Below the pieces are notes generated by a model, which did not search any database, was not told where the DNA came from, and saw only the letters and a list, made by a program, of their open reading frames with translations. Below are positions 6,956 to 25,658 of a stretch of DNA of 64,000 bases, one piece after another. The DNA is taken from assembly GCA_035605035.1 (NCBI GenBank), contig DATNHI010000106.1, positions 849 through 64,848 on the forward strand, in the 5' to 3' direction. The position numbers and the translations under genes are program-made. Within the stretch, counting starts at the first letter, position 1; the number at the start of each line of letters is the position of its first letter. The DNA comes from Verrucomicrobiia bacterium. Lineage in GTDB: Bacteria > Verrucomicrobiota > Verrucomicrobiia > Limisphaerales > UBA11358.

Positions 6956-8413
6956 TCACCGCTTCAACGCTGAAACTGCGACTTGCTTGCTGACTTTCGC
7001 GAGGCGTTTTTCCCATTCGCCCTTGTGCGCCAACGGGTCGGCGTCCGTGCCCCAGAGTTTCTTGACCATCTCCAATTGCGGCACGAACGGGCATTTGGCC
7101 TTGGGATTTTTGTAAATCTCCTCCATCTCGCGCAACGCGAACTGCGCGCCGGTCATCACCGCCGACGAGCCGAACCGTTCGTTGAGTTGGTGCGCCGCGT
7201 CGTCCAGCGCGCCCCAGCGTTCCGCGTCGGTTTTGCCCCAAAGCGTCGGCTGCGTGTCCAGCCGCGCCAGGTTCCAGAACCCGATGCGGATTTGCCGGAC
7301 CGGTTTGGCCTGGTCGCTCATGATCTTCCGGAAAATATTTTCCAGGACCGCGTTCATGACGGAATTTTGAAATTGTGGTTCGTGAAAACGGTGACCGCCG
7401 CTGACTTCGCTGAAATCGTTGAACCGGATCGTCAGGCCCAGCTCGCGCGCCTGCATTTGCTCGCGGCGCAACTGGCCGACCAGCCGCGTCGCCTCGCTCA
7501 ACGTAAACGTGAGCGCGCCCTCGTAATCCGGCTCGTCGTAAGGCAGCGTCGTGTTGCTGGAAATCGTCGTGCGGTCCTTCACCTGCAACAGCAACGGCTC
7601 GCTCCACAGGCCGTTGGCGAACAGCCAGAGTTGCGTGCCCCAGATGCCGAACTTTTTCCGGAGCAGGGTCGAAGGCAATTTCGCCACGTGCCCGAACGTC
7701 TGCGCGCCCAGCGCCGCCAACGCGCGCTGGCGGTTTTTGCCGATGCCGGAAAGCTCGCGCACGGAACGGTCCTTGAGAAATTCTTTTTCGTCGCCGGGTT
7801 TGATTTCGATGAACCCGGGCTTGGCGGCGTCCGTCGCCAGCTTGGCCAGCCGCGATGAATTGGCCAGACCGGCCGAGACCGGCAATTTTACTTCCCGCGA
7901 AATGCGTTCGCGGATTTCGCCCACGTATTTTTCCGGCGTCGTGTCGCGCCAGACGTGACGGTCCATCGTGGTGAAATCCAGGAAACCTTCGTCAATCGAG
8001 ATGGGAACCAGCGTGGGCGAATATTCCTCGAGGATGCGGAACATCTGCCGCGACAGCTCGCGGTAGTCGTCGTAGTGCGGTTTGCACAGGACGCCGCGCG
8101 GACACAGCCGCGCCGCCTCGAAACACGCCATGCCGGTCGTGATGCCGAATTTCTTGGCCGCGCGATTGGCGGCGATGACGATGCCGTCGCCGCGCCGTCC
8201 GCCGCCGACCCAGACCGGGCGGTCCCGCAATTTGGGATTGCGGGCAATCTCGCAACTGGCGAAGAAACTGTCGCCGTCCACGTGCAGGATGCGAATGGGT
8301 GTGCTCACAACAAGCGCGTTTCGTTGGAGTTCACGCTTCAGCGTGTCTTCATGCCCTAAACAACCTGAAGGTTGAACTCCAACTGTGCGTTGTTCAGGTT
8401 CGCCCAAAACCAT
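6956..8413 (-). CDS. dinB: Y-family DNA polymerase IV
   Basis: ILHVDGDSFFASCE...ISIDEGFLD are Y-family catalytic motifs. A GTG at 8308 (VSTPIRILHVD) is a plausible true start. C-terminal extension relative to typical DinB. Confidence 0.85.
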   Translation of the reverse strand: MVLGEPEQRTVGVQPSGCLGHEDTLKRELQRNALVVSTPIRILHVDGDSFFASCEIARNPKLRDRPVWVGGGRRGDGIVIAANRAAKKFGITTGMACFEAARLCPRGVLCKPHYDDYRELSRQMFRILEEYSPTLVPISIDEGFLDFTTMDRHVWRDTTPEKYVGEIRERISREVKLPVSAGLANSSRLAKLATDAAKPGFIEIKPGDEKEFLKDRSVRELSGIGKNRQRALAALGAQTFGHVAKLPSTLLRKKFGIWGTQLWLFANGLWSEPLLLQVKDRTTISSNTTLPYDEPDYEGALTFTLSEATRLVGQLRREQMQARELGLTIRFNDFSEVSGGHRFHEPQFQNSVMNAVLENIFRKIMSDQAKPVRQIRIGFWNLARLDTQPTLWGKTDAERWGALDDAAHQLNERFGSSAVMTGAQFALREMEEIYKNPKAKCPFVPQLEMVKKLWGTDADPLAHKGEWEKRLAKVSKQVAVSALKR

Positions 8414-8548
8414 ACGCTGTCAATCCTGACTTATGACCTTGGACAAAGGCGGTCCAAGCGGAAATTTTTCATATTCTCATCCTGGAATGGTCGCCGTGCC
8501 GACGACCCTGATTTAGTTGGGACGGCGGCACGCCGTCCCTCCCGGCTT

Positions 8549-8606
8549 AAATCTCGTCGCCCCCCCACCATTTTGCGGATCCAATCCCCCTGTGACACAC
8601 GGGCGC
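8549..8606 (+). repeat. ghost copy of the purM 5' leader/start region
   Basis: Core ttttgcggatccaatccccctgtgacac (8571-8598) matches ttttgcggatttaatctccctgtgaaac (9866-9893, contains the purM GTG) at 24/28 nt by hand count. Weaker similarity on both flanks. Confidence 0.6.
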
Positions 8607-8634
8607 TTCGCCGTAAAGACTTTGCCTGAAGATT

Positions 8635-8976
8635 TCAGCCAATGCCTTCGAGCCGGTCGGTATAGACGTTCACCAGCTTGTGGGATTTGAGCAGCGTTTC
8701 AACCTGCGGCCAGACGCGGGCGAGCAAGGCATGAAAAACATTGCGGCGGAGATTGCCGAATCGCAGATGCACCACCCGTGGCGGCGGCGATTGCGTGATA
8801 ATCCGGTCTGAAAAATCCGCATCCTTGCTCACGATGACCAAATCATGTTTCCGGGCAAATTCCCAGATCTGTGAATCAGTTGGCTGCCTGGCGATTTTGG
8901 ATGTGGAAACAATGGGAAGCTTCGGCGAAAACCGCAGCCGCGTGGGCAGGTTTTCATCGAAGAGAAAGCCCTTCAT
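8635..8976 (-). CDS. DUF5615-like (PIN-like) putative toxin
   Basis: MKGFLFDENLP...IWEFARKHDLVIVSKDADF. 4-nt ATGA overlap with the upstream DUF433 gene. ORF track start 9033 likely over-extended. Confidence 0.7.
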   Translation of the reverse strand: MKGFLFDENLPTRLRFSPKLPIVSTSKIARQPTDSQIWEFARKHDLVIVSKDADFSDRIITQSPPPRVVHLRFGNLRRNVFHALLARVWPQVETLLKSHKLVNVYTDRLEGIG

Positions 8977-9197
8977 GCCGGCTGCACCACGGAAAAATGA
9001 TTGCCCATCACGCGCGAAGCGTAATCGAGACACGCCTGAACGTCAGCACGCGTGAGCCTGGGATACTCCGCGAGCACGTCCTCGACCGAATCGCCGGCGG
9101 CAAGGAATTCCAACACCGTCTGCACCGTGATGCGGGTGCCGCGAACGACCGGCCGCCCGTTGCAAACATCCGGCTTGATGGAGATGCGTTCCGACAT
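8973..9197 (-). CDS. DUF433-like putative antitoxin
   Basis: ISIKPDVCNGRPVVRGTRITVQTVLEFLAAGDSVEDVLAEYPRLTRADVQACLDYA is the typical DUF433 pattern. Confidence 0.75.
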   Translation of the reverse strand: MSERISIKPDVCNGRPVVRGTRITVQTVLEFLAAGDSVEDVLAEYPRLTRADVQACLDYASRVMGNHFSVVQPA

Positions 9198-9486
9198 GCC
9201 GTTACGCTAGCACATTTATGCGTGAATCCAAGAGGAAAAGCGGCGCGCTGGAGCGACACGGGCATTTGCGCAGGAGCGCGGACAGCTTGTCCGCGAGTTG
9301 AATTTGCTGCTTCCATGCATACGCGGGCAGGCTGCCCGCGCTCCGAAATCAAAAGCCCGTCACGGCTGACATCTTTGTAGTCCAATAATCCAGATCAAGC
9401 TAAAGCTCCGTTAGGAGCGGCATCATCGGGAAATCTGCACGGAATATACCGCGCCTGCGAAGTTTCAATCGGCCCTGGCGTTACTG

Positions 9487-9717: not shown

Positions 9718-9886
9718 GATTGGTATAGGGAAACAAACAGCCGTATGCTTAAAAGTCTCAGGGAATCTAACTTGGGATCGCAGATGATTCCCCATCCGGT
9801 GCGGGCCTAAACAGCGGCCTTGCACCCGCCGATGTCATAAGTGAAATTTTCTCGCCCGCGAATCCTTTTGCGGATTTAATCTCCCT

Positions 9887-10978
9887 GTGAAACAAAAGGC
9901 TTATGCCCGGGCGGGCGTGGATATTGATTTGGGCAACCGGGTCAAATCCACCCTGCCGCAACTGCTCGCCGCCACGCATCGCCGTGAGGTGCTCGGCAAA
10001 GTCGGCGGCTTCGGTGGTTTGTTCGCGCTCGACCTCAAGAAATACCGCGAGCCGGTCCTCGTATCGTCCGTGGACGGCGTCGGCACCAAGCTCAAAATCG
10101 CCTTCGCCATGGACCGGCACGACACCATCGGCGCCGACCTCGTGAACCATTGCGTGAACGACATCGCCGTGCTGGGCGCCGAGCCGCTGTTCTTCCTGGA
10201 TTATCTCGGCACGGGCAAACTCGAGCCGCACGTTTTCACCGAAATCATCAAGGGCTTCGCGCGCGCGTGCTCCGAAAACCATTGCGCACTCATCGGTGGC
10301 GAGACGGCGCAGATGCCTGGCTTTTACCAGAAAGGCGAATACGACGTGAGCGGCACCATCGTCGGCGTCGTCGAAAAAAGCAAAATGCTCAACGGCCAGA
10401 AAACTGTGCGCGTCGGCGATGCGGTCGTTGGCATCGCGTCCAGCGGCTTGCACACGAACGGCTATTCGCTCGCCCGGAAAATCTTTTTCGAGCAATTGAA
10501 ATTGAAACCCACCAGCCGCGTGCCGGGACTGAAAGGCACGATTGGTTACGAACTGCTGAAAGTCCATGTAAGCTACGGGCCGTTGGTGCAAAAGTTAATT
10601 GCAAAGTTCAACAACGTAGCGCAGACGTCTCGTCTGCACAGCAAAAGCAGGCGGGACGCCTGCGCTACTATCAAAGCCTTCGCCCACATCACCGGCGGCG
10701 GGTTTGTGGACAACATCCCGCGCGTTCTCCCGAAAAATTGCGACGTCGTCATCCACAAAGGTTCGTGGGACATGCTGCCGATTTTCGAAATCATCGAAGC
10801 CAAAGGTGGTGTGCCGGAAACCGAGCTTTATCAGGTGTTCAACATGGGCATCGGCATTGTGGCGATTGTGTCGGCGGCCAAGGCAGGCGCGATTTTGAAA
10901 TTCATCCGCAGCCAGAAGCACCGGGCGTGGCTCATTGGCGAAGTGGTGAAGGGCCAAGGCCAGGCGCGGGTGATTTGA
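9887..10978 (+). CDS. purM: phosphoribosylformylglycinamidine cyclo-ligase (AIR synthetase) with an in-frame palindromic insertion
   Basis: AYARAGVDIDLGN...GGFGGLFAL...DGVGTKL...AHITGGGFVDNIPRVLP. GTG start. Confidence 0.9.
   Translation: MKQKAYARAGVDIDLGNRVKSTLPQLLAATHRREVLGKVGGFGGLFALDLKKYREPVLVSSVDGVGTKLKIAFAMDRHDTIGADLVNHCVNDIAVLGAEPLFFLDYLGTGKLEPHVFTEIIKGFARACSENHCALIGGETAQMPGFYQKGEYDVSGTIVGVVEKSKMLNGQKTVRVGDAVVGIASSGLHTNGYSLARKIFFEQLKLKPTSRVPGLKGTIGYELLKVHVSYGPLVQKLIAKFNNVAQTSRLHSKSRRDACATIKAFAHITGGGFVDNIPRVLPKNCDVVIHKGSWDMLPIFEIIEAKGGVPETELYQVFNMGIGIVAIVSAAKAGAILKFIRSQKHRAWLIGEVVKGQGQARVI
10621..10662. repeat. two small GC hairpins inside the purM CDS (in frame)
   Basis: gcagacg-tct-cgtctgc and caggcg-gga-cgcctg. 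Translated as QTSRLHSKSRRDACAT, just before the conserved AHITGGG. Confidence 0.8.
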
Positions 10979-10981
10979 AAG

Positions 10982-11503
10982 ATGATATTGCGGACACCGT
11001 ATCGCTCAAGTCGCCCGTCAATTGACATGCTGGCAGTCAATTGGGCTGTCTTCAGTTTCGTGATGATGGTGGTTTTTGTCATTGGACTTGCGCTGCCGCA
11101 GCAATTCATAAAATTTGCAGTCTCCTTTCCGACAGGATTCATTCTGGCCGGTATTTTTGCGATCAGCTTGCACAGCCTCATAATCTTTCTTTTGTCGCGG
11201 TCCAAAAAACTGCGAACCGCTGCCGCATACACCGATGGAAGGGCGGTCAAAATATTGGAGTACACCGTATCAGCGGTCTGCTGGGTTTTATATTCTTTGT
11301 TGTGGTGGTATGGCGCGCTTGAAGCGACAGCGATTTTTCTTTTCGTTCCAACCTACTTTGTGACGTCGTTAGTAGTTTATCATGTCTGCTTCAACTACTT
11401 CGCGCGCGACGAAATCAACAAAAAGACTCTGTGGGTGTTGGTGGGAAATATCTGGACCCTCGGCCACTACGCCTTGATCTTTTTGAAGGTTCTCAAACCA
11501 TAG
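10982..11503 (+). CDS. hypothetical multi-pass membrane protein (cargo behind purM)
   Basis: 173-aa ORF with several hydrophobic segments. AT-richer than flanks. Starts 3 nt after the purM stop. Confidence 0.55.
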   Translation: MILRTPYRSSRPSIDMLAVNWAVFSFVMMVVFVIGLALPQQFIKFAVSFPTGFILAGIFAISLHSLIIFLLSRSKKLRTAAAYTDGRAVKILEYTVSAVCWVLYSLLWWYGALEATAIFLFVPTYFVTSLVVYHVCFNYFARDEINKKTLWVLVGNIWTLGHYALIFLKVLKP

Positions 11504-11509
11504 TTTTTT

Positions 11510-11585
11510 TCTCACAAACTCAAGCAGCCCGGCGTGGTTCATCGGTGAAGTCGTCAAAGGCAAAGGCGAAGCGCGGGTGGAATAA
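11510..11585 (+). pseudogene. ghost purM 3' end
   Basis: Reads ...AWFIGEVVKGKGEARVE* versus real PurM ...AWLIGEVVKGQGQARVI*. 42/55 nt identical by hand count, same frame and same stop position; several differences are synonymous. Confidence 0.8.
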
Positions 11586-11755
11586 GCCCGAAGTCCGAAT
11601 ACCGAAATCCGACCCGTCCTCCGTAGCAGCACTGCGGAGGGTGGAAAGAAATCCGAATTGCGAAATCCGATCAAGTGAGGCGAGCACTCACGAGCATTTC
11701 GGGCTTCGGGTTTCGGCCTTCTTTTGGAATTCGGATTTCGGGCTTCGGATTTATC
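11586..11755. repeat. composite heptad-periodic inverted repeat (atccgaa / ttcggat units) with a nested cctccgtagcag..ctgcggagg hairpin
   Basis: Left side cccgaagtccgaataccgaaatccga...atccgaattgcgaaatccga. Right side cttcgggtttcgg...ggaattcggatttcgggcttcggattt. Confidence 0.8.
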
Positions 11756-12787
11756 TCAGTAACTCATCCGGTCCAGCTTCACCTTGCCGCGGAAAATCCA
11801 GTAGATGCAGACGGTGTAGGCAATCACCAGCGGCACGCCGATGCACGCGATGATGAGCATAATCTCCAACGTCTTCGGCGAGGACGCGGCGTTGATAATC
11901 GTCAGGCTGTTTTCCGGGTTCGGTTGGCTGAAGACGAGATTCGGATATTGGTCCAGGCCAAACAACGCCATCAGCGTAATCATCGTCGCGCACGATGACA
12001 GGAACGCCTTCCAGTCGCGGCCGTGGTAAAATTCGCGCGGGATGTTGGCGATGGCGAGCATGTTCGCCAGCGCGATGCTGAACAACCAGGGATTTTCCCG
12101 CACGCGCGCCGCCATGTGCGGAACGTAGAGCAGTGTGGCCATCGTCGTGATGGCAGCGCAGATCACGAAGAAAATGATGCTGTTCATCGCCCAGCCGCGC
12201 AATTTGTCGTGGAGCGGGCCTTCGGTTTTCATCAGGCCGTAAATCGCGCCGTGCATCATGAACAACGCGACGGTCGTAACACCGAGCAGCAACGGATACG
12301 GTTTGAGCAAACCCAAAAACGTCCCGGCGAATTCGCCGTTTTTGTCAATCGGAACGCCCCAGGCGATGTTGCCCATCGCTACACCGATGAGCAACGCTGA
12401 CACAAGGCTGCCGGCAGAAAAGCCGATGTCCCACATCTGTCGCCACCAGCGCATCGGTTGTTTGCTGCGGAATTCGATGGCCACGGCGCGAAAGATCAGC
12501 GCCACCAGCAGCAGGACGAAAGCCAGATAAAAACCGGAGAACACCGTGGCATAAACGTTCGGAAACGCGGCGAAGAGCGCGCCGCCGCCGGTGACCAGCC
12601 AGACTTCGTTGCCGTCCCAGACAGGCCCGATGGCATTGAGCAACGTGCGCCGTTCCATATCATCCTTCGTGAACAGGTGGAGCGCGCCGATGCCGAGATC
12701 AAAGCCGTCGAGCATCGCGTAGCCGGTAAACAGCACCCCGACGAGGATGAACCAAGTAGTATTCAGATCAAAATTGGCAGAGTTCAT
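11756..12787 (-). CDS. cydB: cytochrome bd ubiquinol oxidase subunit II
   Basis: MNSANFDLNTTWFILVGVLFTGYAMLDGFDLG is a typical CydB N-terminus. ORF track start 12868 reads through the repeat (SDFGIRISDF) and is rejected. Confidence 0.85.
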   Translation of the reverse strand: MNSANFDLNTTWFILVGVLFTGYAMLDGFDLGIGALHLFTKDDMERRTLLNAIGPVWDGNEVWLVTGGGALFAAFPNVYATVFSGFYLAFVLLLVALIFRAVAIEFRSKQPMRWWRQMWDIGFSAGSLVSALLIGVAMGNIAWGVPIDKNGEFAGTFLGLLKPYPLLLGVTTVALFMMHGAIYGLMKTEGPLHDKLRGWAMNSIIFFVICAAITTMATLLYVPHMAARVRENPWLFSIALANMLAIANIPREFYHGRDWKAFLSSCATMITLMALFGLDQYPNLVFSQPNPENSLTIINAASSPKTLEIMLIIACIGVPLVIAYTVCIYWIFRGKVKLDRMSY

Positions 12788-12965
12788 GGGTGGCAGGAAA
12801 TCCGAAATCCGAATGCCGAAATCCGAAAGAAATCCGAATACCGAATTCCAAAAAAGCGCGGCGCACAATCACTGGCATTCCGGGTTTCGGATTTCGGGCT
12901 TCTTTCGGGTTTCGGATTTCGAGCCTCGGATTTTGGGCATCGGGTTTCGGATTTTGAGTTCATGG
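12788..12965. repeat. heptad-periodic inverted repeat filling the cydA-cydB spacer
   Basis: aatccgaaatccgaatgccgaaatccgaaagaaatccgaataccgaa ... ggtttcggatttcgggcttctttcgggtttcggatttcgagcctcggattttgggcatcgggtttcggatttt. Confidence 0.85.
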
Positions 12966-14327
12966 TTATTCCCGTGTTGGCAAAGCGAGCTTGCCTGCCG
13001 GGGTCAGGTCAGCGTCGTCCGGTCCGTGCTGGATCTTGTCGTTGAGCAGATAAATGAACACCGCGAACAGCAGGAAATAAATGAACGTGAACAAAATCAG
13101 CGACGAGAGAACGGCACTTTTTGCCACGACGGCCGACAAACCCGCCGGCGTGCGCATCAGGCCATAGACAATCCATGGTTGGCGTCCGACTTCGGCGGCG
13201 AACCAACCGAGCTGGTTGGCGATTTGCGGTCCGAGCACGGAGAAAACGAGGATCCACAGCAGCCAGCGCCGTTCATGCAGCGAGCCGTGGCGGAAATACA
13301 AAAAGCCCAGTGCTGCAATCGCGATCATCGTGAAGCCGACGCCTACCATGCCGTGAAAAAACAGGAACGACGCTTCGACCGGCGGACGGTCTTCGGGCGC
13401 GAAGGCGTCCAGACCGGTTACCATCGTTTTGGTTTCAAAGCCGACGAGAAAACTCAACAGCCCCGGCCATTGCAGGCCAACGACCTTCTCCTGTTTTTCG
13501 TCCACATAACCCACGAGCGTCAGCGGTGCGTTGGAAGAAGTTTCATAGAGTCCTTCAAACGCGGCGAGTTTGGCCGGCTGATTTTTCGCCACGCTTCGGG
13601 CACTGCTGTCACCGCTGACCAGTTGCAGCAGCGAGGCGACCAGCGCGACGGTCAAACCGACCCGTAGCGATGCCCGCGCAAAATCCAAGTTTCGTTTCTT
13701 CAGAAGATACCACGCGCTGACGCTCACCACGAGGAACGCGCCCGCCTGCCACGCCCCGCACAACACGTGAAACAGCCGGTCCACCATTGATGGATTGAAC
13801 ACCAGTTGCCAGAAATCCTTGACTTCCGCGCGCGCCACGCCGTTGTGAGTCACGATTTGGTAACCGGCGGGCGTCTGCATCCACGAGTTGGCGACGACGA
13901 TCCAGACCGCGCTGAAATGCGCGCCCAGACAGACCATGCACGTGGAAAAGAAATGCAGCTTGCGACTGACTTTGTCCCAACCAAACAACAACACCGCGAG
14001 AAAACCGGATTCGAGGAAGAACGCGAAGATCCCTTCCGCTGCCAGCGCGCTGCCGAACACGTCGCCGACAAAACGCGAATACGTCGCCCAGTTTGTGCCG
14101 AACTCGAATTCCATCACGATGCCGGTCGCCACGCCGATGGCGAAGGTGAGGGCGAAGACCTTCGTCCAGAATCGTGCCATCTGGTGATAGACCGGATTTT
14201 TGGTTTTGAGCCACAATCCCTCCATGCAGAGGAGCAGAATGCCAAGGCCGATGCTTAACGGCGGGTAGAGATAATGAAACGCGACCGTGGCCCCGAACTG
14301 GATGCGGGCAAGTGTCAATACATCCAT
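12966..14327 (-). CDS. cydA: cytochrome bd ubiquinol oxidase subunit I
   Basis: [28 protein letters not shown]...[12 protein letters not shown] are CydA hallmarks. Confidence 0.9.
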
Positions 14328-14419: not shown

Positions 14420-15784
14420 ATGCTTTCGGCAATGAAACTTCTGGTCATCGGTTCGGGCGGACGCGAACACGCGCTGGTGTGGAAACTCGCGCAGTCACCG
14501 CACGTCACCCAACTGTGGTGCGCGCCGGGTAACGCTGGAATCGGACAGGAAATAGTGGGACAGGCTTCCAGCCTGTCTGTGGCAACGAACAGGCAAGATG
14601 CCTGTGCCACGGCACGGGCCGCAAAAAATTCTCCCCTTGTCGAATGCGTCAATATTTCCGCCGGAGATTTGCCAAAGCTTCTCGCGTTCGCGCAGGAGAA
14701 GAAAATCGAACTTACCGTCGTCGGCCCGGACAATCCGCTGGCGCTAGGCATCGTGGATTTATTCCAAAAAAACGGCCTGCGAATCTGGGGTCCGAACCGG
14801 AAGGCCGCGCAGTTCGAGTCGTCCAAGGTTTTCTCGCAGCGGTTCGTGGAGAAATACGGCATCCCAACGGCGCGCGCCGGGACGTTTTCGGTGGCAGGAC
14901 CCGCCAAGGCCTTTGCCGCGTCACTCGGCGGCAAATGCGCCGTGAAAGCCGACGGCCTCGCGCTCGGCAAAGGCGTTCTGATTTGCACGAACATGGCAGA
15001 AGCGAACAAGGCGATTGACGAAATCCTGGTCGGCAAAGCCTTTGGCGCGGCGGGCGCAAAGATTGTCATCCAGGAATTTCTGGAGGGCATGGAAATTTCG
15101 CTGCACGCGCTGTGCGACGGTAAAACGGCGAAGCTTTTTCCGACGTCACAGGACCACAAACGCGCGCTGGACTGTGATAAAGGTTTGAATACAGGCGGCA
15201 TGGGCACCTATTCGCCGACGCCGTTCCTGAGCGAAAAGGAATTGGCGGAGACGAGCCGCAAGATTCTGGAACCGTTCACGCGTGGTTGCGCGGCGGAGGG
15301 TATTGATTTTCGCGGCATTCTATATCCCGGCATCATGCTCACGAAGTCCGGCCCGAAGGTGCTGGAATTTAACGCCCGGCTCGGTGACCCGGAAACGCAA
15401 GTCTATCTGCCGCGGCTGGAAAACGACCTGGTCGAACTGCTCGACGCCAGCGCCAGCGGCACACTCGATAAAATGGAATTAAAATGGAGTCCGGTGGCGG
15501 CGGTTTGTGTGGTCATGGCCAGCGGCGGTTATCCCGGCAGTTACACGAAGGGCCAGCCCATCCTGGGTCTGGCCGAAGCGGCGAGATTGCCGAACACAAA
15601 AGTATTTCATGCTGGAACGGCATTGAAGGACGGTCAAATCGTGACGAACGGCGGCCGGGTCCTTGGGGTGACCGCGCTCGGCAAGGATTTGAAATCCGCA
15701 CAGGCGGCGGCCTATGCGGCAGTTGAAAAAATCCATTTCGACGGCGCGCATTTCCGCCGCGATATCGCGGCGAAGGCGCTTTGA
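14420..15784 (+). CDS. purD: phosphoribosylamine--glycine ligase with an in-frame palindromic insertion
   Basis: MKLLVIGSGGREHALVWKLAQSP (likely start 14432)...CAPGNAG...ATP-grasp core...GGRVLGVTALG. Confidence 0.9.
   Translation: MLSAMKLLVIGSGGREHALVWKLAQSPHVTQLWCAPGNAGIGQEIVGQASSLSVATNRQDACATARAAKNSPLVECVNISAGDLPKLLAFAQEKKIELTVVGPDNPLALGIVDLFQKNGLRIWGPNRKAAQFESSKVFSQRFVEKYGIPTARAGTFSVAGPAKAFAASLGGKCAVKADGLALGKGVLICTNMAEANKAIDEILVGKAFGAAGAKIVIQEFLEGMEISLHALCDGKTAKLFPTSQDHKRALDCDKGLNTGGMGTYSPTPFLSEKELAETSRKILEPFTRGCAAEGIDFRGILYPGIMLTKSGPKVLEFNARLGDPETQVYLPRLENDLVELLDASASGTLDKMELKWSPVAAVCVVMASGGYPGSYTKGQPILGLAEAARLPNTKVFHAGTALKDGQIVTNGGRVLGVTALGKDLKSAQAAAYAAVEKIHFDGAHFRRDIAAKAL
14559..14605. 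repeat. two small hairpins inside the purD CDS (in frame)
   Basis: gacaggc-ttcca-gcctgtc and acaggca-aga-tgcctgt. Translated as GQASSLSVATNRQDACAT in the loop after CAPGNAG. Confidence 0.8.
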
Positions 15785-15816: not shown

Positions 15817-17370
15817 ATGTTGGTTGCCCGGCCACTTAATGCCACGATGCTCTCCCGACTCTTCCGCCGCAAATCGCTCGACCAACTGAGTGCCGAGGCG
15901 ATAGCGCCGCAGTTTCAGCTCAAACGCGCGCTCGGGCCGGTGCACCTGACATTGCTCGGAGTGGGCGCGGTCATCGGCGCCGGCATCTTCTCTTCCATCG
16001 GCGACGCGGTGGCGGGTGGGCAGAATCATCCCGGCGCCGGCCCGGCAGTCATTGTGTCGTTTGTGTTGTCGGCGATTGCGTGTGCCCTGGCGGGATTGTG
16101 CTACGCGGAGTTTGCCGCCATGGTGCCGGTGTCCGGTTCGGCTTATACCTATACTTACGCCACGTTGGGCGAACTGGCCGCGTGGATCATCGGTTGGGAT
16201 CTTATCCTCGAATACGCCATCGGCAACGTCGCCGTGGCGATCTCGTGGTCGGCTTACTTTCAGGAACTGCTGCGCGGGCTGGGCCTGCACTGGCCGTTAT
16301 GGCTGGGCGTGGATTTTCGTTCGGCACTGCAGGCCGCGAAGCAGATCGCCGCGGCCAAGGCCGCCGGCATTGATCCGGCGACCCTGGATGCAACGGTGCG
16401 AGAGGCAGCCCAGGCGTTTACGGACGCGCCGCGCCTGGCTGGCGTGCCGCTCATCTTCAACTTACCCGGGTTCGGCATTGTGATGCTGTTGACCTGGATT
16501 CTGGTCATCGGCATCCGCGAAAGTTCCTGGTTCAATTCGGCGATGGTGATTGTGAAGCTCGTCATCCTGGCTTTTTTCATGACTTTGGGCGCGTTCTACG
16601 TGAAACCGGAAAACTGGACGCCATTTGCGCCCAACGGCTGGGCCGGCATCACCAGCGCCGCGGCGATCATCTTTTTTGCTTACATTGGTTTTGATGCGGT
16701 TTCAACCGCCGCCGAGGAAACCCGCCAGCCGCAGCGCAACGTGCCAATCGGCATTCTCGCCAGCCTCGCCGTTTGCACGGTCATCTACATCGTGGTGGCG
16801 GTGGTGCTGACCGGCCTCATACGGTGGGACAAACTGGGCACGGCCGAGCCGCTGGCTACGGCATTTTCCGGGCTGGGGCTGAACTGGGCCGTAGGCATTA
16901 TTTCCGTCGGCGCGCTGGTGGCGAACACGTCGGTGCTGCTCGTCTTTCAGTTCGGGCAACCGCGCATTTTTTTCAGCATGGCGCGCGACGGCTTGTTGCC
17001 GGCCTGGGCGGCAAAAGTTCATCCCCGGTACCGCACACCGCACGTGACGACCATCCTGACCGGTGTGCTGGTCGCGGGCTTTGCCGGGATTACGAACCTC
17101 AACGAAATGCTGGAGCTTTGCAACATCGGTACGCTGTTTGCTTTCGTGCTGGTGGCGACCGGCATCCTGATCCTGCGGCGCACGGACCCCGACCGCCCGC
17201 GATCGTTTCGCACGCCGCTGTGTCCGTGGGTGCCGTTGGCGGCCATCCTTTCCTGCGGCTGGTTGATGCTCAAGTTACCGTGGAAAACCTGGTGGTGGTT
17301 CTTTGTCTGGCTCGCCGTCGGGCTGCTGATTTATTTTCCCTACAGCATGCGGCGGAGCCGGCTCCGGTGA
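15817..17370 (+). CDS. APC-family amino acid permease (cargo behind purD)
   Basis: About 12 hydrophobic segments. GVGAVIGAGIFSSIG and FFAYIGFDAVSTAAEE motifs. Alternative start 15847. Confidence 0.8.
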   Translation: MLVARPLNATMLSRLFRRKSLDQLSAEAIAPQFQLKRALGPVHLTLLGVGAVIGAGIFSSIGDAVAGGQNHPGAGPAVIVSFVLSAIACALAGLCYAEFAAMVPVSGSAYTYTYATLGELAAWIIGWDLILEYAIGNVAVAISWSAYFQELLRGLGLHWPLWLGVDFRSALQAAKQIAAAKAAGIDPATLDATVREAAQAFTDAPRLAGVPLIFNLPGFGIVMLLTWILVIGIRESSWFNSAMVIVKLVILAFFMTLGAFYVKPENWTPFAPNGWAGITSAAAIIFFAYIGFDAVSTAAEETRQPQRNVPIGILASLAVCTVIYIVVAVVLTGLIRWDKLGTAEPLATAFSGLGLNWAVGIISVGALVANTSVLLVFQFGQPRIFFSMARDGLLPAWAAKVHPRYRTPHVTTILTGVLVAGFAGITNLNEMLELCNIGTLFAFVLVATGILILRRTDPDRPRSFRTPLCPWVPLAAILSCGWLMLKLPWKTWWWFFVWLAVGLLIYFPYSMRRSRLR

Positions 17371-17384
17371 GCCAAGTCGTGAAA

Positions 17385-17456
17385 TCGGTCAACGGAAGAA
17401 AAATCCATTTCGACGGCGCGCATTTTCGCCACGACATCGCGGCGAAGGCATTTTGA
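17385..17456 (+). pseudogene. ghost purD 3' end, copy 1
   Basis: ...KIHFDGAHFRHDIAAKAF* versus real ...KIHFDGAHFRRDIAAKAL*. 49/54 nt identical over the terminal block by hand count. Confidence 0.9.
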
Positions 17457-17469: not shown

Positions 17470-19185
17470 TTACTGTTCGGCAGCTTGCGGCGGAATATTT
17501 GTATAACTGGCGTCTTCATGCACCCGATTGCCGGCAGGGTCAATGATTGTTGCGGTGACAAACACGAGCGTGTGCCGATTAAGAGAGTTTGTTTTGCTGC
17601 CATCAAGTTCTGCAAGCGCGGCGTCTGTTTGAACTTGATTGTCCTTCAGTCCAAAAACCAGCGTCTGATCGTCAAAAAGATTTACTGAATTCGTTGTTGA
17701 TTGCACACGAAATTGAGGCGACACCGTTGGCACGTCAATTTCCTGCCCGGCTGAATTATAAGCTGGTGTCGTGTTTGTAGATTGAGCGTAACCCAAAAAT
17801 TCAACCACCGAAGCGATGACAGGCAATTCGATGGTATAACTGTCAGGCAGCACGCGCGGTATCGCGTCGAGAACCGGTCCCGTTTCAACATTTTCAGTTT
17901 GAGGAACAATGCTGGAAGTGCCATTTGTTTCTTGAAGGCAAAAATTGGTCACGACAGAAATAATCTGTGTTGCCCGCATTTGAACTTGGCGTCCGCTGGT
18001 TAACACCACTTCTGGTTCGGCGAGAGTTTCAACATCATTGCGTGAGCGTAATTGCTTTAACGCAATACGGAAGTTTTCGTCGGTAAGAATACCGGCACTG
18101 GTCGAATCATACCAACCGGCAGATACGTCTTTCGGCATCGTCAGAAATCTTGCTTTGATGTGGATTTGCGGGATGGACGAATTGGTATCCGGACTAAAAC
18201 GCAAATGTGACGATGTTTGCAACGGGCGATTTTTTTCGGCGAGTTCGTCAAGCTGTCGCCGCAAGACGCCGGTTTCACCGCGTAATTTCAGCAATTCGTC
18301 AAATTGGTCTTCTGATAATTTTTTTGCATCGCCAACTTGAGCGAGACGATTTGAATAACTTTCGTTGTCCGTTTGCAATTGCGCGATTTGTTGGTTCAAC
18401 GACGTTTGCTGTTGTTGCAATGCGCCGATTTGTTTTTGCAATTGAATCGAGTAAATGCCGCTGCCAATTGCGGCGACGGCAAATCCAGCGATGAGAATTT
18501 TGTGAATCATAGTCATTCCGAGGGTTGTAGTTGTTAAGGCGACGGTGGTTGAAATTGTAGCGGCCAATCCAACCGGTGCGGATTGGACGGCGTTGGCGGA
18601 AATCAGAACCGCCAGTCCGCTCGCGCCAATCGTCACGTTACGTTTCGATAAAAATTCGCGCAGCCGCTCCACGGCGCGGCTGACGCGCTTTTGCGCGGCA
18701 TCGTCGCTCACGCCGAGCGCCCGGCCAACGGCGCGGAAATCCTGGTTCCGGAAAAAACGGAGCAACAAGGCTTCGCGGTCTTCTTCGCCGAGGCTGTCGA
18801 GCGCTTCATCCAGCGCTGGCCGGATTTGTTCCCAATCTGCGGAAGGTCCGGCATTGGAAAGAAATTGATTCATGGCTTGCCTTTCGTTTGCGAGCCGGCG
18901 CCGGTCATCGCGCAAATGCTTGAGCGCCGCATAGCGCGTGGCACGGTGTAGCCAGCCGGCCAGTGAAGCCTCCACCGCCAGCCGTTCGGCCACCGATCCT
19001 GCTTTGCGCGCCAGGTCCACAAAAACTTTTTGAGCAATGTCTGCCGCCAAATCGGCGGATTCCACCTGCCGCAAGGCGGCGGAATACACGAAGTCCGTGT
19101 GGCGCGTGACGATTTCGCGGAACGCGGCTTCGTCACCGCGCTCGGCGTAGTCGCGGAGCAGTTGGACGTCGGATTTGTCGCTCAC
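17470..19185 (-). CDS. ECF sigma domain / TM / coiled-coil / secretin-like C-terminal fusion protein (paralog A)
   Basis: N-terminal sigma r2/r4 (FREIVTRHTDFVYSAALRQV...LLLRFFRNQDFRAVGRALGVSDDAAQKRVSRAVERLREF). TM segment MIHKILIAGFAVAAIGSGIYSI. Q-rich coiled coil. C-terminus LAEPEVVLTSGRQVQMRATQ...GPVLDAIPRVLPDSYTIELPV...HTLVFVTATIIDPAGN resembles the secretin domain pattern. Confidence 0.75.
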   Translation of the reverse strand: MSDKSDVQLLRDYAERGDEAAFREIVTRHTDFVYSAALRQVESADLAADIAQKVFVDLARKAGSVAERLAVEASLAGWLHRATRYAALKHLRDDRRRLANERQAMNQFLSNAGPSADWEQIRPALDEALDSLGEEDREALLLRFFRNQDFRAVGRALGVSDDAAQKRVSRAVERLREFLSKRNVTIGASGLAVLISANAVQSAPVGLAATISTTVALTTTTLGMTMIHKILIAGFAVAAIGSGIYSIQLQKQIGALQQQQTSLNQQIAQLQTDNESYSNRLAQVGDAKKLSEDQFDELLKLRGETGVLRRQLDELAEKNRPLQTSSHLRFSPDTNSSIPQIHIKARFLTMPKDVSAGWYDSTSAGILTDENFRIALKQLRSRNDVETLAEPEVVLTSGRQVQMRATQIISVVTNFCLQETNGTSSIVPQTENVETGPVLDAIPRVLPDSYTIELPVIASVVEFLGYAQSTNTTPAYNSAGQEIDVPTVSPQFRVQSTTNSVNLFDDQTLVFGLKDNQVQTDAALAELDGSKTNSLNRHTLVFVTATIIDPAGNRVHEDASYTNIPPQAAEQ

Positions 19186-19242: not shown

Positions 19243-19357
19243 CGTGACGGCTCGGGCGAAAGATCTGAAACCCGCGCAAGCCGCCGCCTGCGCGGCTGTG
19301 CCGAAAATCCATTTTGACGTCGCGCATTTCCGCCGCGACATCGCGGCGAAGGCGTTG
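19243..19357 (+). pseudogene. ghost purD 3' end, copy 2
   Basis: KDLKPAQAAACAAVPKIHFDVAHFRRDIAAKAL versus real GKDLKSAQAAAYAAVEKIHFDGAHFRRDIAAKAL. 46/50 nt over the terminal block; stop lost. Confidence 0.9.
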
Positions 19358-19362
19358 AGGTG

Positions 19363-20988
19363 TTATTGACGTTTTGGAAAATCCCGGCCATCCACAACCG
19401 TCGGCGTCACAAACATCAAGAGGCTTTTTGGCCCAGCCGGCATATTTGTGGATCCAGGCATCCATCCATCGTCGGCCATTTCTGTTGCCATGACAACCGT
19501 CTGGCCGGGAGATAATGTCACTTGATTTGTTAATTGAATTGTCTGCACGTCCGGCTGCGAAGGATCGCCGGTCAATTGGTTTAATTTCGCTCCGAGATTC
19601 AAATTAAAAGTAGAGGAGTTGGTTGAAAAATAGGGCTTCACATCCAGGTTGACGCCGATATTCGTGTAATTCACGCTGGCATTCGCGTTTGTGCCCTCGG
19701 CGGAAAGCACGGGAAACGCCTTGGTCACGGAAATTTGAGCTTGTTCTCCATTGATGGTAACTATTCGCGGTGCGCTGATGACATTGGCGTCACTAGCCCC
19801 TTGCAACGCTTCATTGATGACCTTGAATTGCTGTCCGGTCAGTAAGCCGGTTTTTACACCGTGCGCGTCCGACTTCCACCCAACTCCAAGAACTTGCAAA
19901 TTTTCGGTGGGAAGAGAAACAAATTGTGCCCTCAAGAGAATCTGAATCTTTTCCACTTCCGGCACACTGTTCGTCTCCGTTTGCGCCGCGACCGGTAAAG
20001 CATTTTGCTGCCGCCTCAATTGCGTCATTTCGCCGCGCAATCTCAGAAGTTCCGTCTCGTTGGCGCGCAATTGTTTGTTTTCCTGTTGAAGTGACGCCAG
20101 TTGATTTGTCGCCTCGTCACGCTCCTGTTGCAATTGCTGGATTTGTTCGGTCAACGTCGTTTGTTTTTGACGCAGTGAATGAATTTGGTTTTGCAGTTGA
20201 AACGCATAAATGGTCGCACCAACAGCGGCGGCACCCAAGATGATGAAGAGTGTTTTTTGGATTGTGGTCATGGCGATGGCTTTGGTGGCGGCAATTACGG
20301 CTGAAGTGTGAACAGCGGCTCCGGCCAGAACAGCGGCGGTTGAAATGCTCGCAGCCAGCCCAACCGGCGCGGCTTGAACGGCGTTGGCGGAAATCAAAAC
20401 CGCGAGTCCGCTCGCGCCGATGGTCACGCTGCGTTTCGAGAAAAATTCGCGCAATCGTTCGACCGCTCGGCTGACGCGCTTTTGCGCGGCGCCTTCGGAC
20501 GCGCCCAAAACTTCACCGACTTCGCGCAGATTTTTGTTTTCAAAATAGCGGAGCAGAATCGCGCTGCGGTCAGCATCGTCAAGCGTGTCCATGGCTTCGT
20601 CGAGCAGCGGCTCGATTTCGAACCAGACAGGCGGGACGCCTGTGCCACTTTCGGTCGCATTCATATTGTTCATCTCCACGGCGATTTGCTCGCGCAATTG
20701 GCGGCGCGATTCCTTTCGGATTACGTCAATCGCGGTTCGGCGCGTGACGGCGTAAAGCCACGGCGTCAGGGAACTGACAGGCGGGACGCCCGTGCCACCA
20801 ATCTTGCCGGCGTCGCGCGCCAGATCGGCGAAGACGGATTGCGAAACTTCCTCAGCCAGTTGCGGTGAGCGGACTTGCCGCAACGCGGCGGAATGAACCA
20901 GATCCAGGTGCCGCCTGACAATTTCGGCGAAGGCGTCCTGTGAATTTTCCCGCGTGTATTGCCGTAGCAAATCCAAATCGCTTGTCAT
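19363..20988 (-). CDS. ECF sigma domain / TM / coiled-coil / secretin-like fusion protein (paralog B)
   Basis: Start chosen at MTSDLDLLRQYTRENSQDAFAEIVRRHLDLVHSAALRQV (ATG at 20988). The segment VSRAVERLREFFSKRSVTIGASGLAVLISANAVQAAPVGLAASIS is near identical to paralog A. C-terminus VISAPRIVTINGEQAQISVTKAFPV...IGVNLDVKPYF...LLMFVTPTVV is secretin-like. Confidence 0.75.
   Translation of the reverse strand: MTSDLDLLRQYTRENSQDAFAEIVRRHLDLVHSAALRQVRSPQLAEEVSQSVFADLARDAGKIGGTGVPPVSSLTPWLYAVTRRTAIDVIRKESRRQLREQIAVEMNNMNATESGTGVPPVWFEIEPLLDEAMDTLDDADRSAILLRYFENKNLREVGEVLGASEGAAQKRVSRAVERLREFFSKRSVTIGASGLAVLISANAVQAAPVGLAASISTAAVLAGAAVHTSAVIAATKAIAMTTIQKTLFIILGAAAVGATIYAFQLQNQIHSLRQKQTTLTEQIQQLQQERDEATNQLASLQQENKQLRANETELLRLRGEMTQLRRQQNALPVAAQTETNSVPEVEKIQILLRAQFVSLPTENLQVLGVGWKSDAHGVKTGLLTGQQFKVINEALQGASDANVISAPRIVTINGEQAQISVTKAFPVLSAEGTNANASVNYTNIGVNLDVKPYFSTNSSTFNLNLGAKLNQLTGDPSQPDVQTIQLTNQVTLSPGQTVVMATEMADDGWMPGSTNMPAGPKSLLMFVTPTVVDGRDFPKRQ
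20627..20793. repeat. two copies of the acaggcgggacgcc(t/c)gt hairpin inside paralog B (in frame)
   Basis: 20627-20643 and 20777-20793. Translated on the minus strand as ...SGTGVPPV... and ...GGTGVPPV.... Paralogs A and C lack them at the aligned positions. Confidence 0.8.
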
Positions 20989-21177
20989 GCTTTTGAAAGT
21001 ATATCGCCGCCGGACGACGAAATCCGACACAATTTCCCCGGTTGAATCCAGGCTCGACGGAGGCTTCCACCCTCCGTAGCAGAGCAACTGCGGAGGACGG
21101 GCGCCCCACCACTTTTCCCGGCGGCCGTGCGCAAGCATCTTTACTTTCGCCGTTTTGTCGCGCATTGTGGAGGCAGC

Positions 21178-21894
21178 ATGACACAACGTTATTTCAGGCT
21201 CTCGATTCTGGTCTTGGCCGGCGTGCTGGTGGCGCAAGTGGCGTCGTCCGCGGACACGACCAACCCGGCGCTGGCGAAGTCGGAGATTTTGGAAGGCAAC
21301 GTCGCCTATCTCCGCGTCAGCCACGTCGCCGCTGGCCTTTCGGATGAAATTGGCGTGGCCAACAGCGCGTTGACGACCACGAACAAAGTTGCCGGAACCG
21401 TCCTGGACCTGCGCTTTGCCGACGGTGACGATGCGGCGGCGGCGACCGCAACCGCAAATCGGCTGGCGGCAAAGAAGCTGCCCCTGGCAATTCTGGTAAA
21501 CGACGAGACGCGTGGCGCAGCGGTAACATTGGCAACGGCCTTGCGTGCGTCGCGGGCGGGGCTGATTTTCGGCAGCGTGCCGGCGGCGGTGAAACCGGAC
21601 ATTGCCGTCGCGGAAGACCCCGCCGACGAGAAAAGGTTTTTTGAAAATCCCTACGCGACGCCGGCCACCAACGCCGTCGCCGCGCTGTCCGGCACAAATG
21701 AATTTCTGCCCTGGGTGGACCATACCAGCGAAGCGGATCTGGTCCGTGCGAAAATCAAGGATGGCGACGAATTTGAAAATCCGCCGCCGCCGCACGCGGC
21801 GGGACCGCAAAAGCCGGTGATTCGCGACCCGGTCCTGGCGCGCGCGGTGGATTTGATCAAGGGACTTGCGATTGTCCGGGAATTCCATCCTTGA
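21178..21894 (+). CDS. secreted S41 (C-terminal processing peptidase)-like protein, probably non-catalytic
   Basis: Signal-like MTQRYFRLSILVLAGVLVAQVASSA. GNVAYLRVS...GTVLDLRFADGDD...PLAILVNDETRGAAVTLATAL aligns to the S41 core, but the SASASE serine motif is replaced. Confidence 0.5.
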   Translation: MTQRYFRLSILVLAGVLVAQVASSADTTNPALAKSEILEGNVAYLRVSHVAAGLSDEIGVANSALTTTNKVAGTVLDLRFADGDDAAAATATANRLAAKKLPLAILVNDETRGAAVTLATALRASRAGLIFGSVPAAVKPDIAVAEDPADEKRFFENPYATPATNAVAALSGTNEFLPWVDHTSEADLVRAKIKDGDEFENPPPPHAAGPQKPVIRDPVLARAVDLIKGLAIVREFHP

Positions 21895-21908
21895 TTTCGG
21901 GTTGACGA

Positions 21909-24122: not shown

Positions 24123-25537
24123 TTGGGCGGTGGAAAAGCCATGTGCTGTTGTTCCCAAGCGCCAAAATCACCATCAGGTTCGGCGTGCAGTTGTGCATGG
24201 CCGTCCGCGAAACCATAAACCTTGACCCATTCCCCGTTGTACAACCAGGGTTGGTTTTCCCGGACAATGATGGTGGAGCCGGGGTTGGTAATGCTTTTCC
24301 ACGATCCTTGATAAACAATTTCGAGTTGACTCAAATTACTGCGAACCGAATTTAAATCGCCGCCCAAATAGGGTGCGGCCTGATCAAAGTTCGTGGGAAG
24401 CTGATCTTCGTTGGCATTTGCATACATGATCATTCCCATCACCGATTGTTTGGCGTTGTTCATCTTGAACAGGGCGGCCTTTTCCTGTGCCGCATGCAAA
24501 TCAACCTTCTCATCTTCCGATTGCTGTTGGTTTGAGGTTGCGAGATCCGGTGAGGCACGCAGCTTCCCAAGTTCGTTTGTCCGTTGGCGAAGCATTCCCA
24601 CTTCACCCCGAAGCCGCAGCAAGTCGTTGAATTGTTCATCCGTCAGTGATTTGGCTTCGCCAACCTCCGCAAGGCGGTTGGAAAAGCCTTCGTTGTCCGC
24701 ATGCAATTGCGCGATTTGCTGGCGCAAAGACGTGTTTTCGTCACGCAATTGAGTTTGGGTTTGATGTTGAACCACCAAAGCGGTTGTCACGCCAGCCACG
24801 ACCAGCGCGCTGACGCCGAGTTTCAGTTGGGTTGCAGTCATAATTTTCAAAAGTGTAAGGGGGGTTCCTGCGCCGGCGGCAATCGAAGCAGTCGAAAGCG
24901 TCGCGGCCAGGTTTGCGGGCGCCAGTTGGACCGCGTTGGCGGAAATCACGGACGACAGCGCGGTCGCCGTCGTGATGCCGCGTTTGGCAAAAATGGTGCG
25001 GAGCTTTTCGAGCGTCCGTTCCACCCGCATCCGCGCGGCGTTTTCGTTGAGGCCAAGCTTCGCGCCGAGTTCGGCGAATTGCTGGTTCTCAAAATAGCGC
25101 AGCAAAACGGCTTCGCGGTCGGTTTCTCTCAGTTCGTGCATGGCGTCGTCCAGCACCGGGCGAACCATTTCCCAATCGGCTTCGGACCCGGGTTGGGCAG
25201 ACGGGGTGCCCGATCCGCTATTTTGAATCGGTTCACGCATAAATTTTTCCTCGCGGTCGCGCCGGCGATTTTCCGTCCGCACGATTTTCGCGGCGGCAAA
25301 GTGAGTGCTGGTATAAAGCCAGCCGGTCAACGTTTCGCGACGCGCAAGCGAACCCGCCTTGCGCGCGAGGTCGGTGAAAACAGTCTGCGCCACATCCTGT
25401 GCCAGATGCGCATCGCCGTTGACCTGTCGCAATGCGGCGGAAAAGACCAGATTGACGTGCCGCCGCACCAGTTCGGCGAAGGCGTCTTCAGAATTGGTGT
25501 TGGCGTAACAACGCAGCAGTTCGGTATCCGGCGTCAT
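24116..25537 (-). CDS. ECF sigma domain / TM / coiled-coil fusion protein with a different C-terminal domain (paralog C)
   Basis: [39 protein letters not shown]... (ATG at 25537). TM and coiled coil as in A and B. C-terminus ...[27 protein letters not shown]... is not secretin-like. 7-nt convergent overlap with the glyA end. Confidence 0.75.
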
Positions 25538-25658
25538 GTGCAACTTATAGCACCCGCCGAAACGGAAATCGCACAAGAAAAAAGACACGGATTTCAACGA
25601 TTTGCACGAATGGAAACCGCGCAAAGCCGGTAGATGATCATTCGTGTAATTCGTGTCT

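Follow-up and report, generated by a model that had tools for sequence, protein, structure and literature searches.

Homology-facilitated illegitimate recombination (HFIR) has become known through experiments (PMC3240628); its products have been described in Acinetobacter baylyi, in Streptococcus pneumoniae, in Pseudomonas stutzeri and for conjugation of E. coli (PMC3240628 and references in PMC5361080), and HFIR has also been proposed for displaced effector and Rhs 3′-ends, including strings of orphaned ends (PMC5361080). Integrase-less cis-mobilizable elements (CIMEs) of 1.2–13 kb and microCIMEs of 130–220 bp have been described at the 3′-ends of rpsI, fda and rpmG (PMC7563491), and minimal mobile elements in Neisseria (Saunders and Snyder 2002; Snyder 2007, as cited in PMC3787668). 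Here we report a scar that invites comparison with these systems in a 64-kb stretch of DNA (hereafter the window) from an uncultured, Pedosphaera-like soil bacterium of the Limisphaerales (Verrucomicrobiota). In this window purM, which encodes the purine enzyme AIR synthase, is followed by an orphan open reading frame (ORF), here called X, and then by a second, non-coding purM 3′-end, here called the ghost (Table 1). Judged by sequence comparison, HFIR would be the best account of this tail–X–ghost structure, and we regard it as reasonably probable. The locus is a clear recombination scar of a known kind and no new kind of genetic system.

The purM locus resembles HFIR in that one end of the added DNA would be anchored in a conserved gene and the other joined without homology, DNA being added with neither a recombinase nor an att site; it differs in that HFIR was defined by experiment, whereas here the process is read from a scar in metagenome-assembled genomes (MAGs). 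With the orphan ends of Rhs and contact-dependent inhibition (CDI) loci and of the Vibrio cholerae type VI secretion system (T6SS), it shares the arrangement in which a new module comes with its own version of a conserved upstream gene's 3′-end and displaces the old end downstream (PMC5361080), and repeated events string orphaned ends together, as they do in the relative L011 and at purD of the window. There, however, the displaced ends encode toxin domains with immunity genes and are still useful, whereas here the gene is that of a housekeeping purine enzyme and the displaced end is an apparently functionless stub of 18 codons. As in CIMEs, direct repeats of a gene 3′-end flank the insert, the element-borne end keeps the gene intact, and accretion is in tandem; the repeats of CIMEs, however, are att sites with an identical core, and a tyrosine integrase lies in the element or in a tandem partner, whereas at the purM locus no recombinase was found in the scans described below, no core is conserved and the repeat boundaries vary. 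Minimal mobile elements share with this locus a fixed site between conserved genes (here purM and purD or cydB) whose cargo differs among relatives, recombination in those flanks exchanging the cargo with no dedicated mobility genes; by definition, however, they are clean replacements, and a ghost-like partial duplication of a flank falls outside that definition.

The original prediction, made from the letters of the window, counted 42/55 identities between the last 55 nt of purM (10924–10978) and their recurrence at 11531–11585, and this count was reproduced. The direct repeat, 10921–10972 against 11528–11579, covers 52 nt at 81% identity with a spacing of 607 nt and is the longest of the region; the runner-up match to the purM tail anywhere in the window reached 31/55, and 300 shuffled queries gave best matches with a mean of 29.5 (sd 1.0, maximum 34 of 55). 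The longest exact run common to the real tail and the ghost is 9 nt. Several of the differences had been called synonymous, and 6/13 were indeed synonymous or stop-to-stop (att/atc, ggc/ggt, gtg/gtc twice, aag/aaa and tga/taa), and the others belong to four codons with amino acid replacements (L>F, Q>K, Q>E and I>E). Such a mostly synonymous pattern would be expected of two tails that evolved separately under selection, not of a local duplicate in decay. The copies had also been said to share frame and stop, which is right insofar as the ghost keeps its own codon register and has its stop at the homologous position, but not for the reading frame along the contig, the 607-nt offset being no multiple of 3. 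The ghost is not translated, because stop codons close its frame a short way upstream and a start codon is absent. PurM itself is full-length, with the Pfam domains AIRS and AIRS_C spanning residues 57–359 of 363 and an intact C-terminus that fits the clade pattern AW(L/I)IGEVVKGxGxxRVx before the stop.

X is AT-richer than its surroundings (46–47% GC vs 55–62% in the flanks) and fits between the two copies as had been proposed, starting 3 nt after the purM stop and ending ~10–25 nt ahead of the ghost homology. The 3′ half of the spacer that follows X (11504–11527) already resembles the purM codons QKH, with a 1-nt indel, and this junction spacer is conserved in the X-bearing relatives L005, L086, L091 and L098. 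An independent assembly of the same species (L093) carries the identical structure base for base, and the structure is therefore no assembly artefact or chimeric contig. The spacer (CACAAACTC) was also considered as a decayed purD start (CATGAAACTTC), a likeness that is suggestive by eye only and was not relied upon.

The comparison set consisted of 80 Limisphaerales species representatives, all MAGs, to which extra X-bearing loci were added (the loci of both kinds are coded L with a number); PurM of the window is 80–90% identical in amino acids to PurM of 80 Verrucomicrobiota/Limisphaerales MAGs. The check for relatives that lack the insert, suggested with the original prediction, found purM followed directly by cydBA in at least 14/80 (including L018, L021, L031, L035 and L041). 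Six of the 80 have purM followed directly by purD, and X was found in none of the 80. The alignment to L031, the nearest relative on both outer sides of the locus, breaks at 10953 and resumes at 11531. Positions 9843–10953 align separately to L031 5954–7070 (the purM body), and positions 11531–12775 align to L031 7041–8284, which comprises its real tail, hairpin spacer and cydB, as a single high-scoring pair of 87.6% identity; on the L031 side these alignments have 30 nt in common, which is the duplicated piece. The alignment to L013 behaves in the same way, and in both L031 and L013 the hairpin element that follows the ghost in the window stands directly after the real purM stop. Identity of L031 to the window is 92.5% in dinB upstream, 93.9% in the first 214 nt of purM, 85.7% in cydA and 88% (amino acids) in the permease beyond purD. 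Since both flanks are L031-like, the foreign part would comprise the purM tail and X only. The tree of PurM bodies places the window within a clade of purM–cydBA loci, with the X-less L006 as its sister. These comparisons support the reading that the ghost would be the resident's original purM end, at its ancestral position ahead of the purM–cydB spacer.

The affinities of the two tails point the same way. The ghost matches the PurM termini of relatives far above chance and better than it matches the tail of its own gene, with 52/55 identities to L053, 51/55 to L076 and L077 and 50/55 to L007, compared with 42/55 to the window's own tail, and it agrees with the clade consensus at 48/55 positions, the functional tail at 45/55. 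The real tail finds its best match in the tail of the X-bearing L001 (50/55, as also for L002, which is another contig of that genotype) and reaches only 39–40/55 with the closest X-less relatives, L006 and L031; of the sister L006, the ghost shares 45/55 positions but the real tail 39/55. Over all loci, the real tail tends towards the X-bearing tails and the ghost towards the X-less ones. The donor/recipient allele model of the original prediction is supported by these matches, and the two points on which it had been staked, the purM–cyd order in relatives and an above-chance match of the ghost, both turned out in its favour. Along purM, identity of the window to its closest relatives is ~90% and falls to 72–76% over the last ~180 nt, where the X-bearing L091 and L097 hold 82–89%; from this soft evidence, the left crossover probably lies somewhere in 10800–10950, inside purM.

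Homologues of X numbered 17 among 5.8 billion proteins, and in a profile search of 1.84 billion representatives 9 clusters matched; X fits no Pfam or NCBIfam family, and a sequence lookup had no record of the exact sequence. The AlphaFold2 model (pLDDT 77) is helical, with about five helices, and a Foldseek comparison with the PDB gave no fold match. X would be, as modelled, a roughly five-helix membrane protein of a very small orphan family. In all of the ~20 homologue-bearing loci examined (42–94% identity), X adjoins the purM stop directly, and the gene 3′ of it varies (cydB, purD, a lactamase-fold gene and others). L003 and L089 have the order purM–X–purD, and in distant X-bearing loci X abuts or overlaps the next gene and the ghost is absent. 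The X-bearing loci are scattered over the PurM tree, each beside X-less sisters. X thus appears to have no independent existence and to travel always welded to the purM 3′-end. The original prediction of a single inserted gene behind purM was right as to an insert between two tail copies; however, X is not free-standing, since it comes with a purM 3′-end, and the tract likely starts inside purM. That X might recently have passed between L091 and the window was considered (X 94% identical, its central part 97%, the flanks 86–89%) and set aside, the segments being too short to separate a recombination tract from constraint.

Among the X-bearing relatives the ghost has met with different fates. 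L086 keeps at least its start; in L005, L091 and L098–L100 a deletion that reaches to cydB has left no more than its first ~15 nt, and the ghost is missing from L087 and L097. Reduced or lost in this way within the window's own X clade, the ghost is dispensable, and most likely it does nothing. The spacer and the ghost start are shared by L005, L086, L091, L098 and the window, and the event is therefore as old as the divergence of X, which amounts to up to ~17% of nucleotides. L095 and L096 carry X followed by a different, longer ghost that starts ~290 nt before the purM stop, at GGGFVDN; with its different junction, this appears to be a second, independent insertion of X.

The same scar was found with other cargo. 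A scan of all loci for purM-tail ghosts yielded eight further relatives: L011 (2 kb of unknown sequence plus a YafQ-type toxin–antitoxin (TA) pair; ghost of 115 nt), L012 (the same 2-kb segment as L011; ~140 nt, internally deleted), L014 (0.7 kb without an ORF; 77 nt), L023 (VapBC; 82 nt), L030 (a methyltransferase; 43 nt, decayed), L047 (a YafQ-type TA pair; 113 nt, frameshifted), L050 (a GH5 cellulase; 69 nt) and L095 (X; the longer ghost mentioned above, of which the contig ends after ~76 nt). The left boundaries of the ghosts differ by locus (about −43, −58/−65, −70, −80, −88, −125, −140 and −290 nt), and every purM ghost includes the last ~43–55 nt of the gene. The interval from purM to cydB or purD is either empty in relatives or occupied by X, YafQ or VapC TA pairs, a methyltransferase, a REP-associated tyrosine transposase, a GH5 cellulase or unknown membrane proteins, in varying orientation. 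The site is thus a hotspot in the sense that different genes stand between the same conserved flanks in close relatives. The scar of the window appears to exemplify a process that recurs at purM and purD of Limisphaerales.

Two of these loci bear on how the right-hand junction may form. L009 has the order purM–TA–purD with a YafQ pair, and there the stop of the toxin gene overlaps the start of purD. After the toxin stop of L011 and L047 come ATGAAA, a few purD-like bases and then the ghost, and the junction lies where the purD 5′-end (GTCATCGGTTCGGGCGGAC) and the purM 3′ region (GCCATCGTCTCGGCCGAC) resemble each other; a purD-start remnant ahead of the ghost fits a donor fragment that was cut a few nt into its own downstream gene and joined illegitimately. 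L011 further holds an array of real tail, 2-kb cargo, internally deleted ghost, TA pair, second ghost and cydB. The end of the deleted ghost and the sequence downstream of it match the real tail of L019, and L012 has the 2-kb cargo and right junction of L011 without the TA pair. Such an array indicates serial displacement, in which newer arrivals would adjoin the gene and older tails would be pushed outward; a crossover inside the tail can also carry a cassette and its ghost stub from genome to genome.

The 2-kb cargo itself (L011 7089–9875; L012 6916–8987) has no intact plus-strand ORF, only a long arginine-rich ORF on the minus strand, and gave no Pfam, NCBIfam or Rfam match. As a known intron or RNA it was rejected, Rfam on three ghost-bearing relatives having given no match, and the 564-aa minus-strand ORF of L012 was rejected as a gene, since it belongs to no family and looks like an antisense artefact. 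A signal-peptide-like start stands right after the purM stop in L011, and the cargo may be a degraded gene of a secreted protein. The purM termini also differ in their last residues. In cargo-bearing loci (L008, L011, L012, L014, L020, L030, L050 and the window) purM tends to end in RV(I/M/T) before the stop, often with GQGQ, GRGR or GRGQ in place of GxGx, whereas purM directly before cydB or purD ends in RV(E/V), with 0/19 ending in I or T and 1/19 in M; the ghosts show the RV(E/V) type of ending. It may be that the replacement tails have a common origin even where their cargos differ.

The tail of purD is scarred twice in the window, in the order real tail, permease, ghost 1, 571-aa gene and ghost 2. 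Ghosts of the purD tail are also present in eleven relatives, and most of them start at −58 (AAAAATCCATTTCGACGG) despite different upstream cargo. The tail holds an 18-nt palindrome, CGCCGCGA(T/C)ATCGCGGCG, followed by a T-run. Either one old ghost would have served as a stable right flank during the turnover of cargo, or something more specific acts at purD.

Under HFIR, a linear piece of ~0.6–0.75 kb would have come in, carrying the last ~30–180 nt of a foreign purM allele and, 3 nt downstream, X. Its left end would have undergone homologous recombination inside purM, and its right end, a few nt past the X stop, would have been joined illegitimately or through very short homology ~65 nt before the resident purM stop. 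The donor tail would thereby have repaired purM and left the resident tail as an untranslated scar. For spread among close relatives, a variant may apply in which the tail, X and the ghost stub, once so arranged, would be transferred as a unit in ordinary homologous recombination, for which the ghost stub would pair with the purM tail of the recipient. In this scheme, the assignment of donor and recipient alleles, the position of the left crossover and the enzymology are what we infer.

Several points weigh against this scheme. The ghost is old and still near the consensus, which is surprising for neutral DNA and would need luck or a later refreshing, that is, overwriting by the then-functional tail through recombination. 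A microhomology join at the window's right-hand junction is putative, as its demonstration would take a donor sequence. Uptake of linear DNA by transformation or an equivalent route, with a RecA-dependent anchor, would presume natural competence of these uncultured Verrucomicrobiota; the window contains genes for an ATPase like those of type IV pili and type II secretion systems, a pilin and a secretin, which are no evidence of competence. The position of the left crossover depends on identity bins of 80–110 nt, and the purM 3′-end is the more variable part in all comparisons. The allele affinities, when counted by which copy is closer (ghost 48 and real tail 22 among X-less loci, 5 vs 6 among X-bearing loci; Mann–Whitney p = 0.017), come from non-independent loci and from 55 nt only. 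Finally, the common −58 start of most purD-tail ghosts behind different cargo is not predicted by random illegitimate joins.

Another arrangement that we consider possible, if doubtful, is one in which the 3′-ends of conserved genes such as purM and purD would be landing pads in Limisphaerales for integrase-less cassettes, each with a replacement tail on the left and a tail stub on the right that serves as a portable homology arm, and successive entries would build arrays; or else an unrecognised recombinase would act on the tails, an alternative raised because the purD ghosts share the −58 boundary and the palindrome. If this were true, a cassette could enter any genome having the gene, whatever lies downstream.

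Site-specific integration in the strict sense, the main rival, appears rather unlikely. The last ~45–60 nt of purM would then contain an att site and the X segment be an integrase-less CIME or cassette, with the real tail as attL, the ghost as attR and a tyrosine or serine recombinase encoded elsewhere. The anatomy is classical where an element targets a housekeeping gene at its 3′-end and brings a replacement end: the insert lies between direct repeats derived from that 3′-end, and integrase-less CIMEs and microCIMEs at gene 3′-ends are documented (PMC7563491). The stretch common to all purM ghosts, the tail–cargo–tail arrays of L011 and of purD in the window, the left boundary shared by many purD ghosts and the 18-nt palindrome of the purD tail also speak for it. 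On the other hand, the repeats have no identical core, given a longest exact match of 9 nt and an overall identity of 81%, the left boundaries of the purM ghosts vary from −43 to about −290 over nine ghost loci, and in L011 and L047 the remnant resembling a purD start, which separates toxin from ghost, suggests an accidental join and not a designed attP.

The search for a recombinase also weighs against integration of this kind. The insert of the window encodes X alone, and no inverted repeats bound the X segment. No integrase, resolvase or transposase family was found with Pfam and NCBIfam in the tested cargo of L011, L012, L023, L047 and L050. For 71 further ORFs downstream of purM, no recombinase was among the 25 most frequent of 83 Pfam families, which include all families matched by at least two ORFs, so that single matches could stay hidden. 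A crude scan for tyrosine- and serine-recombinase motifs over 821 ORFs, including those of the whole window, gave one weak and probably spurious match. The scans reach 7 kb downstream of purM in 86 loci, and a divergent enzyme could be missed by them. Genes for REP-associated tyrosine transposases (Y1) do adjoin purM in L007 (7231–7875, minus strand) and L080 (~7249–7817, minus strand, apparently split), and one lies upstream of purM in L003 (3078–3524, plus strand). To our knowledge, the chemistry of these transposases yields no duplications of target genes, and no link between them and the ghosts was seen.

The mirror image of the preferred reading is that X would be the old resident, in the order purM–X–purD, and cydBA would have been imported from a lineage with the order purM–cydBA–purD, anchored by homology in purD and bringing a donor purM tail as the ghost. 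The final structure would be identical, distant X-bearing loci do have purM–X–purD with abutting genes, and the region is a mosaic in which L006 is closest in PurM and L018 and L021 are closest in CydB. We nevertheless hold this to be quite unlikely, as dinB, the purM 5′ region, the ghost, the spacer, cydBA and the permease are all closest to the X-less L031, the PurM-body tree puts the window among purM–cydBA loci beside an X-less sister, and the X-linked tails resemble the real tail and not the ghost.

That the ghost is kept for a function, as a terminator, as a regulatory RNA for purM–X or cydAB, or as a homology arm aiding spread, seems very unlikely to us. Its near lack of decay, although the event is shared by relatives, would fit such a role, as would the preservation of purD ghosts across species; against it stand the X-bearing relatives in which the ghost is cut short or missing, and a scan for promoters and terminators around the ghost that detected no site within it, the ghost also lacking an ORF with a start codon.

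An in-situ tandem duplication of the purM 3′-end, with X landing or arising between the copies later and the downstream copy decaying, has hardly any probability left, for although replication slippage or unequal exchange can make direct repeats around a short segment, nothing else favours it, the ghost is nearer to the functional tails of other species than to its own gene's tail and nearer to the consensus than the functional tail is, the differences between the two are largely synonymous, and homologues of X are fixed behind purM in unrelated lineages. Integron gene cassettes, which have an attC site in the form of an imperfect palindrome with RYYYAAC ... GTTRRRY cores and lie downstream of an intI–attI platform, were rejected as a model, since the ghost has neither attC cores nor a palindrome, purM and not intI lies upstream, and the orientation of the cargo varies.

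Under HFIR, the ghost is an unusually legible record of the addition, not the swap, of a gene in unculturable bacteria, in which donor tail, cargo and recipient tail can each be read; throughout an order of Verrucomicrobiota from soil and fresh water, purM and purD bear this kind of scar with other cargo as well. If such scars are homology-anchored illegitimate joins, genome-wide counts of ghosts would estimate how much of the gene gain in uncultured lineages proceeds without the machinery of mobile elements, and the locally recurrent pattern may merit a systematic survey. In practice, the ghost and X should be annotated neither as a purM pseudogene nor as a mobile element.

Table 1. Features of the region from purM to the purD ghosts (positions in the window).
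Feature	Position	Strand	Remarks
purM (AIR synthase), functional copy	9887–10978	+	363 aa; from the ORF list; Pfam AIRS 1.7e-25, AIRS_C 3.4e-22
Probable imported tract: replacement purM 3′-end, X and short spacer	10800–11530	+	Left limit uncertain, 10800–10953
Current purM tail, repeat copy 1 (...AWLIGEVVKGQGQARVI, stop)	10921–10978	+	Read as the donor allele accompanying X
ORF X, predicted orphan membrane protein	10982–11503	+	173 aa, or 158 aa from Met16 at 11027
Junction spacer (TTTTTTTCTCACAAACTCAAGCAGCC)	11504–11527	+	Between the X stop and clear ghost homology
Ghost purM 3′-end (PAWFIGEVVKGKGEARVE, stop), non-coding	11528–11585	+	Read as the resident's original terminus; collinear with the L031 and L013 real tails
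Hairpin-forming intergenic repeat, 170 nt	11586–11755	.	Inverted repeats; ancestral purM–cydB spacer
cydB (cytochrome bd subunit II)	11756–12868	-	Convergent with purM; Pfam Cyt_bd_oxida_II 7.7e-105
cydA (cytochrome bd subunit I)	12966–14327	-	Pfam Cyt_bd_oxida_I 9.4e-166
purD, second conserved flank of the variable region	14420–15784	+	tblastn; two tail ghosts of its own downstream
purD real tail	15727–15784		purD end
purD ghost 1	17399–17456		Last 58 nt, 91% identical; right after the amino-acid permease gene (15817–17370, +)
purD ghost 2	19244–19360		~115 nt, 79–86% identical; after the 571-aa gene (17470–19185, -)

The hairpin element downstream of the ghost consists of 'cggatttcgg'-type units, inverted around a central GC stem (11613–11645), and folds at −100.7 kcal/mol (z = −3.8). 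A further copy lies between cydB and cydA (12825–12933), the copies being 110–170 nt long, and in L012 and L052 the sequence of the central stem sits within the purM coding region. The cydB ORF as listed (370 aa) has ~30 codons (12776–12868) that run into the repeat element; the Pfam match begins at residue 35 and relatives align from residue ~26–32, so that the true start of cydB is probably near 12775.

Other repeats were observed in and around purM and purD. Positions 8549–8599 are a 51-nt copy, 76% identical, of the purM leader and start region (9844–9894), 1.3 kb upstream of it; the copy sits in a segment of ~0.8 kb (8468–9264) that also holds a DUF433/DUF5615 toxin–antitoxin-like pair (8635–9197, minus strand) and is absent from L021. 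It looks like a 5′-side counterpart of the ghost. Inside purM, a 53-nt palindrome (10616–10668) with 22-nt arms that are 86% complementary lies in frame and encodes ...VAQTSRLHSKSRRDACAT...; relatives carry 0–25 extra, unrelated residues at this point, between KFN and KAFAHITGGG, and related half-sites occur at 20627 and 42073. The point appears to be a hotspot for the in-frame insertion of repeat elements within an essential enzyme. Within purD, ~100 nt (14542–14641, around ...SLSVATNRQDACATARAAK...) do not align to relatives that align on both sides, and may be another in-frame insert like that of purM.

The 571-aa gene between the purD ghosts (17470–19185) and the gene at 19363–21927, both on the minus strand, are paralogues with 38% amino acid identity, and their products combine regions 2 and 4 of a sigma-70 factor of the extracytoplasmic function (ECF) type with a secretin domain. 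The fusion of sigma-70 and secretin in one polypeptide is an unusual architecture, and further paralogues lie near 24524–25618.

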